64,000 nt of DNA. Origin: Escherichia phage EC6. The translations under genes were made by a program, and so were the position numbers. Shown piece after piece: positions 2,203 to 59,592 of this stretch. The notes under the pieces were generated by a model that saw only the letters and a list, made by a program, of their open reading frames with translations, had not been told where the DNA came from and searched no databases. Position 1 is the stretch's first letter; each line of letters opens with the position of its first letter. Location: sequence record JX560968; one strand, given 5' to 3'.

Positions 2203-2223
2203 TATTCTTAAGGAGGGTTATGA

Positions 2224-2673
2224 ATGTGTTATACAGGCGACCCAGCCAATAACCCTCTTGATAGAGTAAGAATCCTCTGCACAGACACCAATAATGATGA
2301 AATTCTTATTGAACAGTCTGTGCTAGAGTGGTTCTATCTAGAATCTGGAAAGGATGAAAAGAAAGCAGCCATCAAAGCTCTTAAATATTTACTCTTTCAA
2401 GTAGCCAAGATGGGAGATGAGAAAGTTGGTGGTGTTTATTTACGTAACTCTTCCAGATTCAAATCTCTGAAAGCTGTTTATGACGACCTTGTTAAAAGCT
2501 CTGTTTCAGGACTACCCTATGCAGGTGGTATTAATCAGTGTGATATTGACATGCGTCGTCATAATCCTTGCTCTGTCAAGAAATACACAGAATATGGTGA
2601 TGCTGCCAGATACGAAGGCAGAGATTACTGCAACCGTGTTAATGGCGTATTTATTATCGAGCGAGATGAATAA
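2224..2673 (+). CDS. hypothetical head-tail joining/neck protein
   Basis: ORF with AAGGAGGG RBS 8 nt upstream; between capsid and sheath genes. Confidence 0.3.
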   Translation: MCYTGDPANNPLDRVRILCTDTNNDEILIEQSVLEWFYLESGKDEKKAAIKALKYLLFQVAKMGDEKVGGVYLRNSSRFKSLKAVYDDLVKSSVSGLPYAGGINQCDIDMRRHNPCSVKKYTEYGDAARYEGRDYCNRVNGVFIIERDE

Positions 2674-3155
2674 TGGTTAAAAGGGTTATTCACCCCGCTA
2701 GAGCAAAATTAGTCGGGGCTATGAAGAACTTGCAAACGGCTAATGCTCAAGTTGGGTATTTTCAAGAACAAGGTCAACATAGCTCTGGTTTTTCTTATCC
2801 TGCTTTAATGTATTTACAAGAAGTTATTGGGGTTCCTTCAGCTTCTGGTAAAGTATATCGTAGGTTGTTTGAAATCACTATGATGCTAAACAAACAGACC
2901 TTGTTAGAGCAGACTAAGAAGAATCTATATAAGCAACTTAGCAGTCTCAACACAGACCCTTCAAATACCTTAGAAGCATTTGCAAAGAATACTCAAAAGG
3001 CAATTAAAAGGGGTTTTGGTAATTCTGCTATCCTCCCTCCTAACGCACCTTCCACAGTCAAGAAAAAAGGCTTTAACGCACCTCTTGTTGAGACAGGTGA
3101 CTTAAGAGATAACCTTGCTTATAAAATTTCTACTAAGAAGGGTATTAAGAAATGA
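2673..3155 (+). CDS. hypothetical head-tail joining/neck protein
   Basis: Start overlaps stop of upstream ORF (translational coupling); morphogenesis module. Confidence 0.3.
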   Translation: MVKRVIHPARAKLVGAMKNLQTANAQVGYFQEQGQHSSGFSYPALMYLQEVIGVPSASGKVYRRLFEITMMLNKQTLLEQTKKNLYKQLSSLNTDPSNTLEAFAKNTQKAIKRGFGNSAILPPNAPSTVKKKGFNAPLVETGDLRDNLAYKISTKKGIKK

Positions 3156-3553
3156 GACTCTTAAACAGACACAGCTTTGTAGTAAAGCGTAAAGTCTCTG
3201 AAGACGGTTATTATAATGATGATGGTGATTGGGTAGCTTCACAAGATATTGTAGAGGTTAACTGTAAAGGTAATATCCAGCCGTATATCAAAGGTTCTGT
3301 AAAGAATGGTACACAGATTGCTTTACCGGAAGGTATTAGACTTACTGATACAAGAATCCTGTATACCACATATAAACTTAGAACTTCAGATGATGTAGAG
3401 TGGAATGAGTCTGATATTGTTATGATTGATGGTCATGAGTATGAAGTATTTATGACTATGGATTGGTCACAGCAATTAGCCCATACATCCCATTATGAGT
3501 ATATCATTATTAGAAGGGATAAAATGAATGCAGTTAGAAACAGCAGAACTTGA
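3152..3553 (+). CDS. hypothetical virion assembly protein
   Basis: Overlapping start/stop with neighbours in structural module. Confidence 0.3.
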   Translation: MRLLNRHSFVVKRKVSEDGYYNDDGDWVASQDIVEVNCKGNIQPYIKGSVKNGTQIALPEGIRLTDTRILYTTYKLRTSDDVEWNESDIVMIDGHEYEVFMTMDWSQQLAHTSHYEYIIIRRDKMNAVRNSRT

Positions 3554-4127
3554 AAAAGGTCTAGTTAGAACCTTAGTGGATGTTATTGGTCACAGACTAG
3601 CTCGTGATAAAAATAATAGACCAAATGTAATTAGAGCTTACCCTTCTGATAACTCAAATGACAAAGGTTTAAAACCTGACCAGCCATTTATTACCGTATA
3701 TTGTCAAGACGCTGCAACACCTTATGGTTGGGTTCTTGATAAGTTTGTTGAGGATGATGTAGTTTGCTACAGAATTGCTTTTCAGATTCCAGTATTAATT
3801 ACGGTAAATGGTAAAGGTGCTCACAGTATTATGCTTGAGCTTAAACAACGATTAGAGATGAGTTCAGTCAGAGATTTAATTCTTGAAGAGACAGGAGCTA
3901 CAGTTTTAGACACTGGAGCTATCCCAAATGACTACACTTATCTTAATACAGATTTCGAAAATTCTGCACCTCTTGTTGTAACTCTTGTAAAAAATTCAGT
4001 CCTGAAAGATGAACGTGGAAGTATTATTGAGCGTGTCATTGTTGATGGTGAATTAGTTTACGAAGAAGGACAAGAGCCACCAGAATATACTATCCATCTA
4101 GATGTAGACTCCAAAGGGGTAAAATAA
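3528..4127 (+). CDS. hypothetical tail completion/terminator-like protein
   Basis: 199-aa ORF immediately upstream of sheath gene. Confidence 0.3.
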   Translation: MQLETAELEKGLVRTLVDVIGHRLARDKNNRPNVIRAYPSDNSNDKGLKPDQPFITVYCQDAATPYGWVLDKFVEDDVVCYRIAFQIPVLITVNGKGAHSIMLELKQRLEMSSVRDLILEETGATVLDTGAIPNDYTYLNTDFENSAPLVVTLVKNSVLKDERGSIIERVIVDGELVYEEGQEPPEYTIHLDVDSKGVK

Positions 4128-6655: not shown

Positions 6656-12054
<5,399 letters not shown>

Positions 12055-14685: not shown

Positions 14686-15861
14686 ATGGCAGTAGGTGAA
14701 ATTCAAATTAGTGCCTTGCCACAAGCGGCCTTACCAGTTGATTTAAGTGATATCTTCCACCTTAAGCAAGGTGTTGAAGATAAAAGATGTACGCTTGAAC
14801 AGTTGTTAGCACCTCACGCATCTCTGAGGAATAACCCTCATGGTGTAACTAAATCACAAGTTGGTCTTGATAATGTTATTAACTCTCTTCAATTAGTTGC
14901 AGCTAATAACTTATCAGACATTGTGAATGTTGCTGAGGCAAGAGCAAATCTACAAATTATGTCGTCAGAGGAAGTGAATAACTTAATTCAGCAACATATT
15001 GACGACAAAAGTAACCCACACAATACAACGAAAGCACAGGTTGGTTTAAGTAATGTTCAGAACTGGACAACATCTAATCTGTACAATGAAGATGCTGATA
15101 AGTATGCTACCGCGAGAGCAGTGAATAATTTATACAAAGCTATCCAAACATCATATCCAGTAGGGACTATTCATCTATCTGTTAACTCTGCTAACCCGTC
15201 CACTTACTTGCTTTGTGGAGGTACTTGGGAGTTAGTTTCTAAAGGTAGGGCGCTTGTTGGTTATGATACAGAAGCTAGACCTGTTGGTTCAACGTTCGGT
15301 TCTCAGACTGTAGCATTAACAAATAATAATTTACCAGCACACACCCACTCTATCTATTTAACAGGTGGTGGTCATACACACTCTGCAAGTGTATCTATCT
15401 CTAGTTTTGATTATGGTTCAAAGAGTACATCAACTTTTGACTACGGTACGAAGGCAACTAACAGTGCTGGTGCTCACACCCACACATTTAGTGGAACGAC
15501 AAGTAATGAGGGTAACCACAACCATAGAGTACCTCTGAGGGGTAATGATAGAAGTGGGTTAAATGCTATTACCGCATCTGCTGATGCTGGGGTTGGTAAT
15601 GCTTCGTATACTGATTTAGCTGGTGCTCACACCCATAGCTTCTCAGGTACAACTGCATCATCTGGTGCTCATAGTCATACTGTTGCAATTGGTGCTCACA
15701 GCCACACTGTTAATATTGGTTCACACAGTCATACGGGCACTGTTACTGTTTCTAGCTCTGAGCATACACACTCAGGGACATCTGGTTCTGTTGGTGGTGG
15801 TCAAGCTTTCAGTGTTGAGCAGCCATCTTTTGTAGTATATGTGTGGCAGAGAACAGCTTAA
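14686..15861 (+). CDS. tail fiber protein with His-x-His-rich C-terminal tip
   Basis: Repeated NPH(G/N)xTK(S/A)QVGL motifs; C-terminal AHTHSFSGTT, AHSHTVAIGAHSHTVNIGSHSHTG repeats (HxH boxes as in metal-binding fiber tips); ends ...AFSVEQPSFVVYVWQRTA. Confidence 0.5.
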   Translation: MAVGEIQISALPQAALPVDLSDIFHLKQGVEDKRCTLEQLLAPHASLRNNPHGVTKSQVGLDNVINSLQLVAANNLSDIVNVAEARANLQIMSSEEVNNLIQQHIDDKSNPHNTTKAQVGLSNVQNWTTSNLYNEDADKYATARAVNNLYKAIQTSYPVGTIHLSVNSANPSTYLLCGGTWELVSKGRALVGYDTEARPVGSTFGSQTVALTNNNLPAHTHSIYLTGGGHTHSASVSISSFDYGSKSTSTFDYGTKATNSAGAHTHTFSGTTSNEGNHNHRVPLRGNDRSGLNAITASADAGVGNASYTDLAGAHTHSFSGTTASSGAHSHTVAIGAHSHTVNIGSHSHTGTVTVSSSEHTHSGTSGSVGGGQAFSVEQPSFVVYVWQRTA

Positions 15862-22058: not shown

Positions 22059-22442
22059 TCAAATACCTGTGCAGCTTCTGTTTTCTAAGAAATACTCAAC
22101 GCCATACATAGCTTTTTGCATCAAATCTTCTTTAAACTGGATGCGATGATTGAGCATAGCCTGTACATCAATATCATCATGGTGCTTCTCTTTAATATTT
22201 GCAGATTGCAGGAAATACTCTGCAAGAACACGATACTGATAGTCAGTCACCTTATCAGTCATCTCTGTCAAAGACTCTTCAGAGATTGGTTTAAGTAACT
22301 CACCATTAGCTAAAGCAACACCTTTAACAATCTGGCAAGTGTCTTCTGGAACACCTGATAAGTCCACATTTGGGAGTTCTGTTGCATTGACTGGTAAATT
22401 CATTGCCATAACCATTGCAGCAGCTAATAAAATCTTTTTCAT
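22059..22442 (-). CDS. secreted/periplasmic protein with signal peptide
   Basis: N-terminus MKKILLAAAMVMAMNLPVNA-TE; GAGGT RBS. Confidence 0.4.
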   Translation of the reverse strand: MKKILLAAAMVMAMNLPVNATELPNVDLSGVPEDTCQIVKGVALANGELLKPISEESLTEMTDKVTDYQYRVLAEYFLQSANIKEKHHDDIDVQAMLNHRIQFKEDLMQKAMYGVEYFLENRSCTGI

Positions 22443-22487
22443 AATGACCTCAAAGCTATATTAAATTTTGTATTACGTTGAGTATAA

Positions 22488-22534
22488 AAATAAGCTATAA
22501 CACCTGACTTGTCAACAGATTTTATAGCTTATTT
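22488..22534. repeat. 13-bp perfect inverted repeat (AAATAAGCTATAA / TTATAGCTTATTT) flanking a minus-strand TTGACA element
   Basis: Arms at 22488-22500 and 22522-22534; loop contains TGTCAA (TTGACA on minus strand). Confidence 0.5.
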
Positions 22535-22680
22535 GGCAGATTTTTTATAAGGCTACTGCCATCCTTCCATACCTTACACTACAAGACCCAACAGCACCGA
22601 GCCACACACTACCTCACTTAAAAACCCTCTTAGAAGACTCTTAAGTGATGCTGGTGAGTACCCGTTGGTTTATGCTGCTC

Positions 22681-22708
22681 AGTATACTCACCAAATTATC
22701 TATGTCAA
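22681..22708 (-). promoter_or_regulatory. sigma70-like promoter (TTGACA-N16-TATACT) on minus strand
   Basis: Minus-strand TTGACA at 22708-22703 and TATACT at 22686-22681, just downstream of ligase stop. Confidence 0.35.
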
Positions 22709-22715
22709 CAACTTT

Positions 22716-23855
22716 TTATTCATAATCCCTAATAACTAGCCCAACAGGGAACTGTAAAGAACCCTTACGAGTCATCTTCTGGAACTGAACCGTTAGAGGT
22801 TTCCCGATAAACTCTTCAGGATGCTCAGCAAGATACTGTTTCTTCTCATGAGTAGTCTTCCATGAGACATCTACAAAGACGTTAGGAAGAGTCTCTACAA
22901 CGAACTTGCCATGACCACGCTTATCAGTCTTTACACCAGTCACTTTAAACTCTTCAGTGTGCATCTTCTTGTGCTTAATCAAGAAGTATGAACGGTGACA
23001 ACACTCATAGAAGGAGTCTTCAGAGATTGAACGGTACATTGCACCTTCAAACTTAGCTTCAACCCACTTATCATGAGCTTCATCAAACTCTTCCCAAGAA
23101 TTTACACGACGAGACTTAACAGGAACAACTTTACAGCCGTCTCTGAAGTCATTCAATGGTGAAGTCTCAATGATATCTCTACGCTCAGGCCACGTCTTAG
23201 TACTATCACAGATATCGTACCAGTAAAACTTGAGTAGGTGTCGGTCAGGATTGTCTTCATTTTTAATCATAGAGACAATATCTTCTAAGTCCCACCCATG
23301 AGCATAAATCTCACCATCAAACTCATCAACATCTTTGTGGAGCCTTAACATTGCCATAATGTCAGGTATTAGTTCAGTAGGGATTTTGTAAACAGTATTC
23401 TCACGAGAGTATGCTGTAAATACACTGCCAATGCTCAAGTTCCTTGAAATCCTACAACGTACACCATCAAGTTTCGGTTGAGCATCAGCAGGGAACTTCA
23501 GATACTTTGTATGGCTAACCTTTGCAGCATCATGAGCAAGCTGTACACCTACCTTCTCAGTATTCTGTGCAGACTCTTTTGTGTAAGCATAACCTTTGCG
23601 GTCAACCTGCTTTTTATACTTTGCAGCAACTTCAAAGAGAGCTTGCTGTTCAGCGTTACGCTCATTCTTTTTACCAATGTTTTTAGGTTCTGCTGTATAC
23701 TCTTCAAACATCATCTTGCCATTTTCTTTACCGTAGGTTGTAATAACTTTGTCACCTACAGCAACGCATGACCAGACGTTGAAAGAGCCATCTTTATTTT
23801 GTTTGTACAGTATTGTCATTTTATTCCTCTGAGTGATACCAAGTATTGCAAGCAT
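22716..23855 (-). CDS. ATP-dependent DNA ligase (nucleotidyltransferase family)
   Basis: KLDGVRC (motif I KxDGxR), DGEIYAHG (motif III-like), EGAMYRS, LIKHKK (motif V-like); true start may be the downstream Met. Confidence 0.6.
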   Translation of the reverse strand: MLAILGITQRNKMTILYKQNKDGSFNVWSCVAVGDKVITTYGKENGKMMFEEYTAEPKNIGKKNERNAEQQALFEVAAKYKKQVDRKGYAYTKESAQNTEKVGVQLAHDAAKVSHTKYLKFPADAQPKLDGVRCRISRNLSIGSVFTAYSRENTVYKIPTELIPDIMAMLRLHKDVDEFDGEIYAHGWDLEDIVSMIKNEDNPDRHLLKFYWYDICDSTKTWPERRDIIETSPLNDFRDGCKVVPVKSRRVNSWEEFDEAHDKWVEAKFEGAMYRSISEDSFYECCHRSYFLIKHKKMHTEEFKVTGVKTDKRGHGKFVVETLPNVFVDVSWKTTHEKKQYLAEHPEEFIGKPLTVQFQKMTRKGSLQFPVGLVIRDYE

Positions 23856-33491: not shown

Positions 33492-33520
33492 TTGACAAAG
33501 GTTGATAGGTTCTATAGAAT
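33492..33520 (+). promoter_or_regulatory. sigma70-like promoter TTGACA-N17-TAGAAT
   Basis: TTGACA 33492-33497, TAGAAT 33515-33520. Confidence 0.5.
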
Positions 33521-33673
33521 GCTCTACATGAAATGTGATGGAGGCGTTGAGGTAGAAGAAAAGTTCCATCACAGTATAATAACAGTCACTATTACTATAC
33601 CTCGACATAATATTGGTTGGCTGTTTATAATTAAAGAAAATGTGTTTGAATATCAAGTATATCGGAGAATATC

Positions 33674-33823
33674 ATGAAACACTCTAAAGCATTTGAAAAA
33701 GTTTTTGGGGATTCCTTAAAAGCCACTGCTGGTAAACCAGCAAAATACTATGAAGAGAAGCGTGTAAGAACTGGAAAAACTGCACGTAAAGCAGCTTCTA
33801 AAGATAAGCACAACTTCCAGTAA
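33674..33823 (+). CDS. small basic protein (49 aa), not in ORF track
   Basis: ATG with GGAG RBS 9 nt upstream; MKHSKAFEKVFGDSLKATAGKPAKYYEEKRVRTGKTARKAASKDKHNFQ. Confidence 0.3.
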   Translation: MKHSKAFEKVFGDSLKATAGKPAKYYEEKRVRTGKTARKAASKDKHNFQ

Positions 33824-33830
33824 TTAATGT

Positions 33831-33859
33831 TTGACAATAGAGTATCAACAAATTAGAAT
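33831..33859 (+). promoter_or_regulatory. sigma70-like promoter TTGACA-N17-TAGAAT
   Basis: TTGACA 33831-33836, TAGAAT 33854-33859, upstream of 33896 gene. Confidence 0.55.
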
Positions 33860-33895
33860 TGGTACTCTTCATAAATTGAGATAGAGGTTTAAATA

Positions 33896-59411: not shown

Positions 59412-59592
59412 TTCAGGATTGTGCAGGTAGAGTTCTGTAGAGAAATCTGTAGAGAAAATTTTGAACTCCAAAGAGAAAATTCATTTTCAAACTGTGCAGG
59501 TAATCTCCAAAGAGCTTTTTCATTTTCAAAACGTGCAGATAAAAATCAGGTCGGGCAAGAAAAATCATTTTAGAATTGTGCAGGTAGGTGGG
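59404..59592 (+). repeat. array of four ~26-nt direct repeats (consensus TCATTTTCAAAAnTGTGCAGGTA)
   Basis: Copies at 59404-59430, 59477-59503, 59516-59543, 59560-59590 with 40-70 nt spacing; extra AGAGAAA sub-repeats. Confidence 0.6.

Follow-up and report, generated by a model that had tools for sequence, protein, structure and literature searches.

A stretch of 64,000 nucleotides from Escherichia phage EC6 (sequence record JX560968), here called the window, contains a noncoding interval of 273 nucleotides at positions 22443-22715. The window belongs to Felixounavirus, a genus of Felix O1-like myoviruses, and it matches Escherichia phage JN01 best, at 97% identity across 2.5 kb. An ATP-dependent DNA ligase gene (22716-23855) ends at one side of the interval, and a gene for a 127-amino-acid signal-peptide protein (22059-22442) starts at the other; all genes of the stretch around it lie on the minus strand. 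Across relatives, this part of the genome is otherwise well conserved, and the interval is where it varies most. We somewhat favor the view that it is a complete small-RNA gene for a guide RNA (vrRNA) of the Viral Interference Programmable Repeat (VIPR) system, and not primarily a leader for the next gene, with action in trans as an anti-VIPR guide as its most likely role.

The interval is framed by a promoter and a terminator-like hairpin. Promoter P1, on the minus strand, comprises TTGACA at 22708-22703, a 16-nucleotide spacer and TATACT at 22686-22681, with a sigma-70 score of 11/12 and a predicted start near 22674. It is one of seven sigma-70 matches scoring at least 11/12 in the 64 kb, compared with 2.4 expected from shuffled sequences, and is the only one on the minus strand. 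At the other end, a terminator-like hairpin (22486-22534, minus strand) is built on a 13-bp perfect inverted repeat (22488-22500 and 22522-22534) that is the single instance in 64 kb and has no counterpart in 30 shuffles. Five more pairs extend the stem to 18 pairs with one mismatch, and the hairpin, which has a 9-nucleotide loop, is followed by UUUUUAU. Folding of the minus-strand RNA gives -17.8 kcal/mol for this hairpin (z = -4.5). A consensus terminator scan did not call the hairpin at 22486-22534, probably because its loop is 9 nucleotides long and its stem is A+U-rich. The loop contains a second TTGACA (22515-22510), which together with a 17-nucleotide spacer and TATTTT at 22492-22487 forms P2, the putative promoter of the 127-amino-acid protein gene (10/12, minus strand). 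Both P1 and P2 resemble sigma-70 promoters in having their hexamers at a spacing of 16-18 nucleotides, and both are conserved across three genera. The homologous sites are both annotated as promoters in the AYO145A record, and the whole arrangement is nearly invariant from Felixounavirus to Suspvirus and Mooglevirus.

An initial annotation had noted P1, an inverted repeat overlapping it, the palindrome that brackets the second TTGACA and the U-rich tract on the minus strand, and all of these features are present. It had interpreted them as a terminator or attenuator with an embedded promoter, or as an operator, controlling the gene at 22059-22442. Sequence and conservation agree with a strong promoter immediately past the ligase gene, with a terminator-like hairpin with a U-tract and with an embedded promoter feeding the 127-amino-acid protein gene. 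That the interval serves in essence as an attenuator or operator for the latter is not supported. Between P1 and the terminator lies a small-RNA gene in its own right. The promoter-terminator reading is correct as far as it goes, and describes the frame, not the content. The inverted repeat at P1 (TGGTGAGTA/TACTCACCA; arms at 22693-22685 and 22660-22652) spans the -10 hexamer and the predicted transcription start, and no role is assigned to it. Similar 9-bp repeats occur at chance frequency (17 in the window; 12 +/- 5.5 in shuffles), and a P1 transcript would include only the 3' arm. The GGTGAGTA/TACTCACC repeat does not exceed chance expectation. It never varies among the relatives compared, and therefore an operator role is neither supported nor refuted.

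The content of the frame is a leader hairpin, a pentamer tract and a pseudoknot. The leader hairpin, designated type A (22615-22647, minus strand), is predicted to fold as CACUUAAGAGUCUUC-UAA-GAGGGUUUUUAAGUG, which is 33 nucleotides with a 15-pair stem that includes G-U pairs. A type A hairpin also precedes vrRNA1 of phage SUSP1 and the last vrRNA of relatives. Type B hairpins retain the apical GUCUU..UAAGAGGGU, but differ in the basal stem (UUAAAAG/CUUUUAA). The tract (22615-22566, minus strand) consists of ten in-register pentamers: GAGGT AGTGT GTGGC TCGGT GCTGT TGGGT CTTGT AGTGT AAGGT ATGGA. Its register is unbroken, and it gives the strongest period-5 signal in the window, with an in-phase GT in 9 of 10 units as compared with at most 6 at any other site, that other site being coding. 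The first two positions of the units (NN) give the guide dinucleotides GA AG GT TC GC TG CT AG AA; the AT of unit 10 is an invariant junction with the tail. In the GGY portion of the nine guide units, G2 and Y3 are always kept, whereas G1 is kept in five and the other four units read UGU. The 3' tail (22566-22535, minus strand, 32 nucleotides) forms a predicted H-type pseudoknot, AAGG AU GGCAG UAG CCUU AUAAAAAAU CUGCC, in which AAGG/CCUU is stem 1 and GGCAG/CUGCC is stem 2. Covariation in 16 distinct tails supports this structure: 98.6% of cells pair and eight of the nine pairs have changed on both sides, whereas slid controls give 30-42%.

Rfam at a permissive threshold returned only chance matches within 22300-22900 (a plastid 3' UTR and a plant miRNA), and a scan for tRNA and tmRNA found none. 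Tandem Repeats Finder did not report the pentamer tract, presumably because the variable NN positions hold copy identity under its threshold; elsewhere in the window it reported a 27-nucleotide repeat with 2.7 copies (15663-15734) and a 39-nucleotide repeat with 2 copies (59466-59542). The tract is the only one of its kind in the window, and the remainder of the JN01 genome contains none; no second copy of the interval was found elsewhere in the window, and the Felix O1 genome paper does not mention the region. Several explanations of the tract were dropped once the link to Vipr proteins described below was found: an array of two-tetrad G-quadruplexes, a binding site for a TRAP-like ring protein, an RfaH ops-like motif (GGTAGTGTG), an R-loop replication origin, and a packaging site. 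The last was considered because the GenBank record of phage pinkbiff (MN850603.1, positions 1-202) begins within the vrRNA region. That record start is probably an assembly break in repeated modules, which is likelier than a physical genome end.

Comparison with relatives reveals the modular nature of the interval. It is 272-282 nucleotides long in JN01 and in Felix O1 (record FO1a), 419 nucleotides in NBEco004 and 722 nucleotides in JK55. AYO145A, wV8, tootiki, Moogle and SUSP1 have two extra genes at this place, with 244-565 nucleotides of noncoding DNA on each side. The noncoding DNA of relatives is one module, repeated one to five times, of a hairpin, 9-17 NNGGT pentamers and a pseudoknot. 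In 317 pentamers, positions 1 and 2 are free and positions 3-5 are G (77%), G and T (85%), where the middle G is in part a product of the detection rule. Independently of the preprints on VIPR, viral contigs were scanned for (GGTNN)5GGT, and the matches listed include long intergenic tracts. These are spread over numerous unrelated contigs, lie for the most part on the neighboring gene's sense strand and sometimes form arrays of 7 to more than 12. Before several of these tracts is an open reading frame that resembles the 195-amino-acid protein that relatives optionally encode at the locus of the window interval. This protein corresponds to Protein Data Bank entry 36pp, "SUSP1 Vipr protein" (E = 6e-128), and belongs to phrog_4652, to which no function is assigned; a Pfam scan of it found no family above threshold. 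Again among the matches listed, an iterative search found a Vipr homologue within the fetched stretch at 28 of the 120 pattern-found loci, and at 18 of the 24 with long noncoding tracts, which bears out the association of the tracts with the protein.

Some of these contigs merit separate mention. In unrelated IMG/VR contigs (L046, plus strand, 2217-3400; L034, minus strand, 3396-3850; L055, minus strand, 11519-12040; L032, plus strand; L106, minus strand), arrays of 4 to more than 12 tracts are split by short conserved linkers, such as AAGGAATGGTTTAATGAATTTAATT or AAGGCTAATGGGT. In other contigs, single tracts lie directly before the ribosome-binding sites of small genes. These loci presumably represent other VIPR types, because most adjoin a Vipr homologue. 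Two GenBank records are probably mislabeled or contaminated: MG065668.1 ("Campylobacter phage A126", unverified) and GU169904.1 ("Staphylococcus phage SA1"). The Felix O1-type sequence in each of them exceeds 90% identity with this enterobacterial phage locus.

VIPR was described only in 2026, in two preprints. The Vipr protein is an ancestral RAMP protein of about 20 kDa, and vap is an accessory gene; in relatives that have them, vipr and vap form a cassette at the very locus of the window interval. A vrRNA consists of 9-16 YNNGG repeats and an invariable tail, which in the SUSP1 clade is a pseudoknot resolved by cryo-EM in SUSP1 VIPR. Each repeat is bound by one Vipr protomer, which sequesters GGY, and the NN pairs read double-stranded DNA with every third base skipped. 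Binding represses transcription, and the code by design ignores wobble changes. SUSP1 has one vrRNA upstream and three downstream of vipr-vap, and most SUSP1-clade guides with an identifiable target are directed against a satellite phage in E. coli (10.64898/2026.04.26.720920, 10.64898/2026.04.26.720927). The SUSP1 vrRNAs, of a type about 100 nucleotides long, were seen by small-RNA sequencing and co-purify with Vipr (10.64898/2026.04.26.720920).

The window element is almost certainly a homologue of these RNAs. Its segment from P1 to the leader hairpin is identical at 100 of 101 positions to the region upstream of SUSP1 vrRNA1, and the segment from the tail to the ATG is identical at 109 of 112 positions to the end of the last SUSP1 vrRNA, including all 32 nucleotides of the tail. 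It shares with vrRNAs the register and the number of units (nine guide units plus AT, within the published range), the tail pseudoknot, homology to RNAs that have been detected, and a target that conforms to the reading rule. Like the SUSP1 type II VIPR vrRNAs, it is situated between the ligase and 127-amino-acid protein genes, has the promoter, leader hairpin, register, tail and terminator, and obeys the 1-nucleotide-skip rule with the skips on wobble positions. It differs from the SUSP1 system in that neither vipr nor vap was found, in having one vrRNA instead of four, and in having a complete GGY in only five of nine guide units. Its target also differs: it is vipr itself, whereas most identifiable SUSP1-clade guides are aimed at the E. 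coli satellite.

This target was found by concatenating the NN pairs with one free base between them, in accordance with the published rule, and searching both strands. A positive control with E. coli satellites reproduced the published result: 23 of 54 guides taken from vipr-carrying loci match them at 80% or better and above all shuffles. The same standard is reached by 6 of 20 guides from vipr-less loci. The window guide matches six satellite islands at only 13-14 of 18 read bases, which is the level of shuffles, with no perfect sub-block beyond chance, and the satellite was rejected as its target. Against all Felix-type DNA compared, units 2-10 (including the AT) match 16 of 18 bases at one homologous site in eight loci, where shuffles reach at most 15. 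Searched exactly, the same pattern, whose tail-junction AT is a mismatch to vipr, gave 1 match in viral contigs and 7 in unrelated genomes, as expected by chance.

When the nine guide units are taken, GA included, 18 of 18 read bases match the antisense strand of vipr nucleotides 40-65. By sequence, the guide almost certainly matches vipr. The perfect match is present in 8 of 18 vipr-carrying loci, which have SUSP1-type alleles; with the order of units shuffled, the window guide reaches at most 13/18 in the cassettes and at most 15/18 in 329 kb. The sole mismatching unit of the tract is the AT of the tail junction, which is invariant in all relatives. The target comprises vipr codons 14-22 (FLSHADTLS), just after the start codon, and the skipped bases coincide with the wobble positions of these codons. 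In Moogle vipr, four wobble bases of the target differ and all read bases are kept. Within the target codons is His17 of Vipr, which the structure preprint gives as a contact to G1 (10.64898/2026.04.26.720920, 10.64898/2026.04.26.720927).

The window vrRNA is an orphan, as no vipr or vap gene was found with it. Searches with tblastn for vipr and vap gave no match to the window, nor to the 24 kb of JN01 beyond window coverage, and a profile of 28 diverse Vipr proteins gave none either (best E = 0.08). Because the vipr gene was sought and not found, the locus is regarded as the RNA component only, and not as a VIPR system. The ligase region is shared by 258 related phage records, approximately 118 of which have vipr, and 13 of 32 loci examined lack it, each of them with one to three vrRNAs. 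About half of GenBank's Felix O1-like phages are vipr-less, among them Felix O1 itself, the classical typing phage (record FO1a, species Felixounavirus felixO1). Units with GGY make up 75% in orphan vrRNAs as a class and 80% in vipr-carrying loci, a difference that is not significant (p = 0.12); in the latter, UGU or AGU account for about 17% of guide units. Orphan vrRNAs as a class are not clearly decayed, and only the subset directed against vipr is lower in GGY.

Other orphan vrRNAs also match vipr. Eight further loci with a single vrRNA were fetched and decoded, and the guide NN proved wholly different between orphan families. In the Felix O1/FO1a/Si3/skuden family, 20/20 to 22/22 guide bases (22/22 in skuden) match vipr nucleotides 466-497 on the sense strand. 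In the ESCO49/SLAM_phiST56 family, the guide matches 20/22 on the antisense strand of vipr nucleotides 1-32, across the start codon, and that of the A126/L136 family has a marginal match (15/18 at vipr nucleotides 97-122). The JLBYU28 orphan family targets the satellite, and no guide target was found for three further families. Among 64 guides from 20 vipr-carrying loci, none matches vipr or vap above shuffles, and none was found to target its own locus or the Felix-type core genome. Self-targeting is likewise reported to be absent in the preprint (10.64898/2026.04.26.720920, 10.64898/2026.04.26.720927).

The vipr gene varies preferentially where these guides would read it. Among 16 related vipr alleles, 10 of 15 variable sites at codon positions 1 and 2 lie inside the four guide target sites, as this analysis defines them, which hold 82 of 392 (21%) of the codon-position-1/2 sites (Fisher p = 1.2e-4). 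Variation at wobble positions shows no such excess (38% inside vs 33% outside). Several of the changes in target sites are leucine swaps between CTG and TTG, which are synonymous yet visible to the NN code; at vipr nucleotides 43, 61 and 487, leucine CTG and TTG alternate between loci L004/L140 and locus L009. That the alleles vary at the read positions of the target sites argues that such guides exert selection in nature.

A mechanism consistent with these observations can be outlined. Host RNA polymerase would start at P1 near 22674 and produce a transcript of the leader hairpin, ten NNGGY pentamers and the pseudoknot tail. Transcription would stop at the A+U-rich hairpin and U-tract near 22486, and P2 in the hairpin loop would drive the 127-amino-acid protein gene. 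On co-infection with a vipr-carrying relative, the rival's Vipr would load the orphan vrRNA, and the complex would sit on the rival's own vipr gene near its promoter, so that vipr and the downstream vap would be shut down. Production of the RNA, its loading by a rival Vipr in mixed infection, and repression of vipr and vap are what we infer from the features above. That the orphan vrRNA acts in trans as an anti-VIPR guide is, in our estimation, evenly balanced between right and wrong. The broader idea is a little more tentative: that Vipr-less Felix O1-type phages carry a single "Trojan" guide that redirects a rival Vipr onto vipr, and that vipr escapes at readable codon positions in an arms race over the effector gene.

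Several points weigh against action in trans. The promoter, terminator and RNA ends of the window vrRNA are predictions, and the absence of vipr outside the window relies on JN01, a 97%-identical relative, and not on the phage's own genome. A full GGY is present in 5 of 9 guide units of the window and in 18 of 31 of the anti-vipr orphans, compared with 519 of 647 in vipr-carrying loci (p = 0.006). Perturbation of the GGY motif is reported to abolish silencing (10.64898/2026.04.26.720920), so loading by Vipr may be poor. The vipr allele of AYO145A and wV8 is not matched by the window guide (14-16 of 20), which fits only the SUSP1-type allele. The escape test used related alleles and target sites that came from the same analysis. 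The mechanism requires co-infection, and it is hard to see what a lytic phage would gain by silencing the vipr of a rival. The sampled VIPR guides target a satellite, and none targets the Felix-type core genome.

The main rival explanation, which we consider clearly less probable than action in trans but still plausible, is that the window vrRNA is a relic. A vipr-carrying ancestor would have gained a guide against its own vipr and so disabled its own system, the cassette and the other vrRNAs would have been lost by recombination between modules, and the last vrRNA would remain without function, while P1 and the terminator with P2 would persist because they serve neighboring genes. Repeated hairpins, tracts and tails would favor deletions, and vipr-less relatives do keep one, two or three vrRNAs. 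In the window, P1 and hairpin A of the SUSP1 type are joined to a last-position vrRNA, an arrangement that would be expected of a remnant of recombination between two leader-hairpin copies. A GGY content of 58% in anti-vipr orphans, as opposed to 80%, is also what relaxed constraint predicts, and no Vipr was found in cis. However, the NN positions are intact (18/18 in the window, 22/22 in skuden) and every departure from GGY is at G1, whereas uniform neutral decay would also strike NN, G2 and Y3. Three independent guide families are directed against three different vipr sites, each surviving as the sole vrRNA, and vipr alleles vary preferentially at the read positions of these sites. Also, no sampled vipr-carrying phage has a self-targeting guide that could be the intermediate.

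Two other explanations were weighed. RNA anti-CRISPRs mimic CRISPR repeats, and the window RNA could resemble them as a sponge, a decoy that soaks up about ten protomers of a rival's Vipr per RNA regardless of its guide. The binding of one protomer per repeat, the retention of a strong P1 and the lack of a detected vipr in cis would all suit a decoy. Yet a decoy needs no particular guide, while that of the window matches vipr perfectly and those of other orphan families likewise match vipr. A decoy should also keep the best GGY, but the anti-vipr orphans have the poorest in the sample, and this explanation appears improbable. Still less probable, in our judgment, is the view of the initial annotation that the interval is a cis-regulatory leader of the 127-amino-acid protein gene (an attenuator, operator or terminator-promoter) with no RNA product of its own. 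It draws on the placement of P2 within the terminator-like hairpin directly upstream of that gene, and on the overlap of the inverted repeat with the P1 -10 hexamer. Against it, the region from P1 to the hairpin is homologous, module by module, to SUSP1 RNAs that were sequenced and found bound to Vipr, and the 9-bp repeat is of a kind that arises by chance. Moreover, the modules occur up to five times in relatives and flank the inserted gene pair on both sides, so that nothing ties them to the 127-amino-acid protein gene.

The satellites that control guides match provide a precedent for guide RNAs without a linked effector. The satellite was found by way of its baseplate gene; 474 of 5426 complete E. 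coli genomes contain it. Six islands were examined (L155-L160, for example NZ_CP012379.1, 1322300-1334200); they are about 11.5 kb long and contain a tape-measure gene, a baseplate gene related to that of the Felix type and one or two serine recombinases, in many cases together with a methylase of the Dam type. Their integration sites are yciI/tonB, a DUF72 gene and lafU/dinB. These islands are evidently the satellite that SUSP1-clade VIPR guides target. None of the six carries vipr, and one (L160, NZ_CM177078.1, minus strand, about 10226-10350 of the segment) has a vrRNA gene of its own, composed of a TATAAT-type promoter, 14 pentamers, a pseudoknot and a G+C-rich terminator. The pseudoknot of this RNA is a further compensatory variant, GTGG..GTCG..CCAC..CGAC. 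Because the satellite encodes no Vipr, its vrRNA must depend on Vipr in trans, and a vipr-less satellite with its own vrRNA is therefore a precedent for such dependence. According to the preprint, satellites encode vrRNAs against related satellites (10.64898/2026.04.26.720920). The satellite case differs from the window in that the RNA is carried by an integrated satellite and not by a lytic helper-type phage, and in that the reported targets are other satellites, not vipr.

Two further systems are comparable in part. In the preprint, vrRNAs of the P. fulva clade are, like the window guide, aimed at VIPR loci, a use that its authors call defensive; they belong to loci with their own vipr, whereas the carrier of the window vrRNA lost the effector or never had it (10.64898/2026.04.26.720920). 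More generally, guides against other VIPR systems are reported there only for loci with their own vipr (10.64898/2026.04.26.720920, 10.64898/2026.04.26.720927). The kind of RNA is already known, from preprints of April to June 2026. A lone, effector-less guide in a lytic phage that is aimed at the effector gene of relatives is not described in the available VIPR preprint text, and guide-only genomes lay outside the survey given there because it started from the Vipr protein. Outside VIPR, virus-borne mini-CRISPR arrays and solitary repeats without cas rely on or interfere with the effector of another genome, and their spacers often target close relatives. In these arrays and in RNA anti-CRISPRs, the protein family is another one and the code differs as well, with contiguous spacers in place of gapped NN. 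Mini-CRISPR arrays use host Cas, whereas the effector used by the window vrRNA would be the rival phage's own, and the target would be the gene for that effector.

Some observations concern the neighboring genes. The gene for the 127-amino-acid protein (phrog_4332, no function assigned) begins with a Shine-Dalgarno sequence, GAGG, at 22451-22448 and an ATG at 22442-22440 (together 22440-22451, minus strand), and a Pfam scan of the protein found nothing above threshold. The ligase open reading frame at 22716-23855, delimited mechanically, encodes 379 amino acids from an upstream ATG; the true start is probably the downstream one, because most relatives annotate 366-367 amino acids (1101-1104 nucleotides). 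In many relatives (JK55, L27, tootiki, Moogle), there is an open reading frame between the ligase stop codon and P1 for a hydrophobic, membrane-like peptide of about 49 amino acids, which the window, JN01 and Felix O1 lack. On the plus strand, three near-consensus sigma-70 promoters (11/12 each) occur within 340 bp at 33492-33860, which may be the divergent early-promoter region of the phage.

The orphan vrRNAs bear on how related phages compete. If they are relics, the guides record an RNA-guided system that switched itself off and was then lost. The vipr alleles, for their part, are a natural escape set for studying evasion of the gapped NN code. If the guides work in trans, they would be a natural, sequence-specific analogue of anti-CRISPR RNAs, and would represent a new way for one virus to disarm another, in which the rival's effector is reprogrammed against its own gene.

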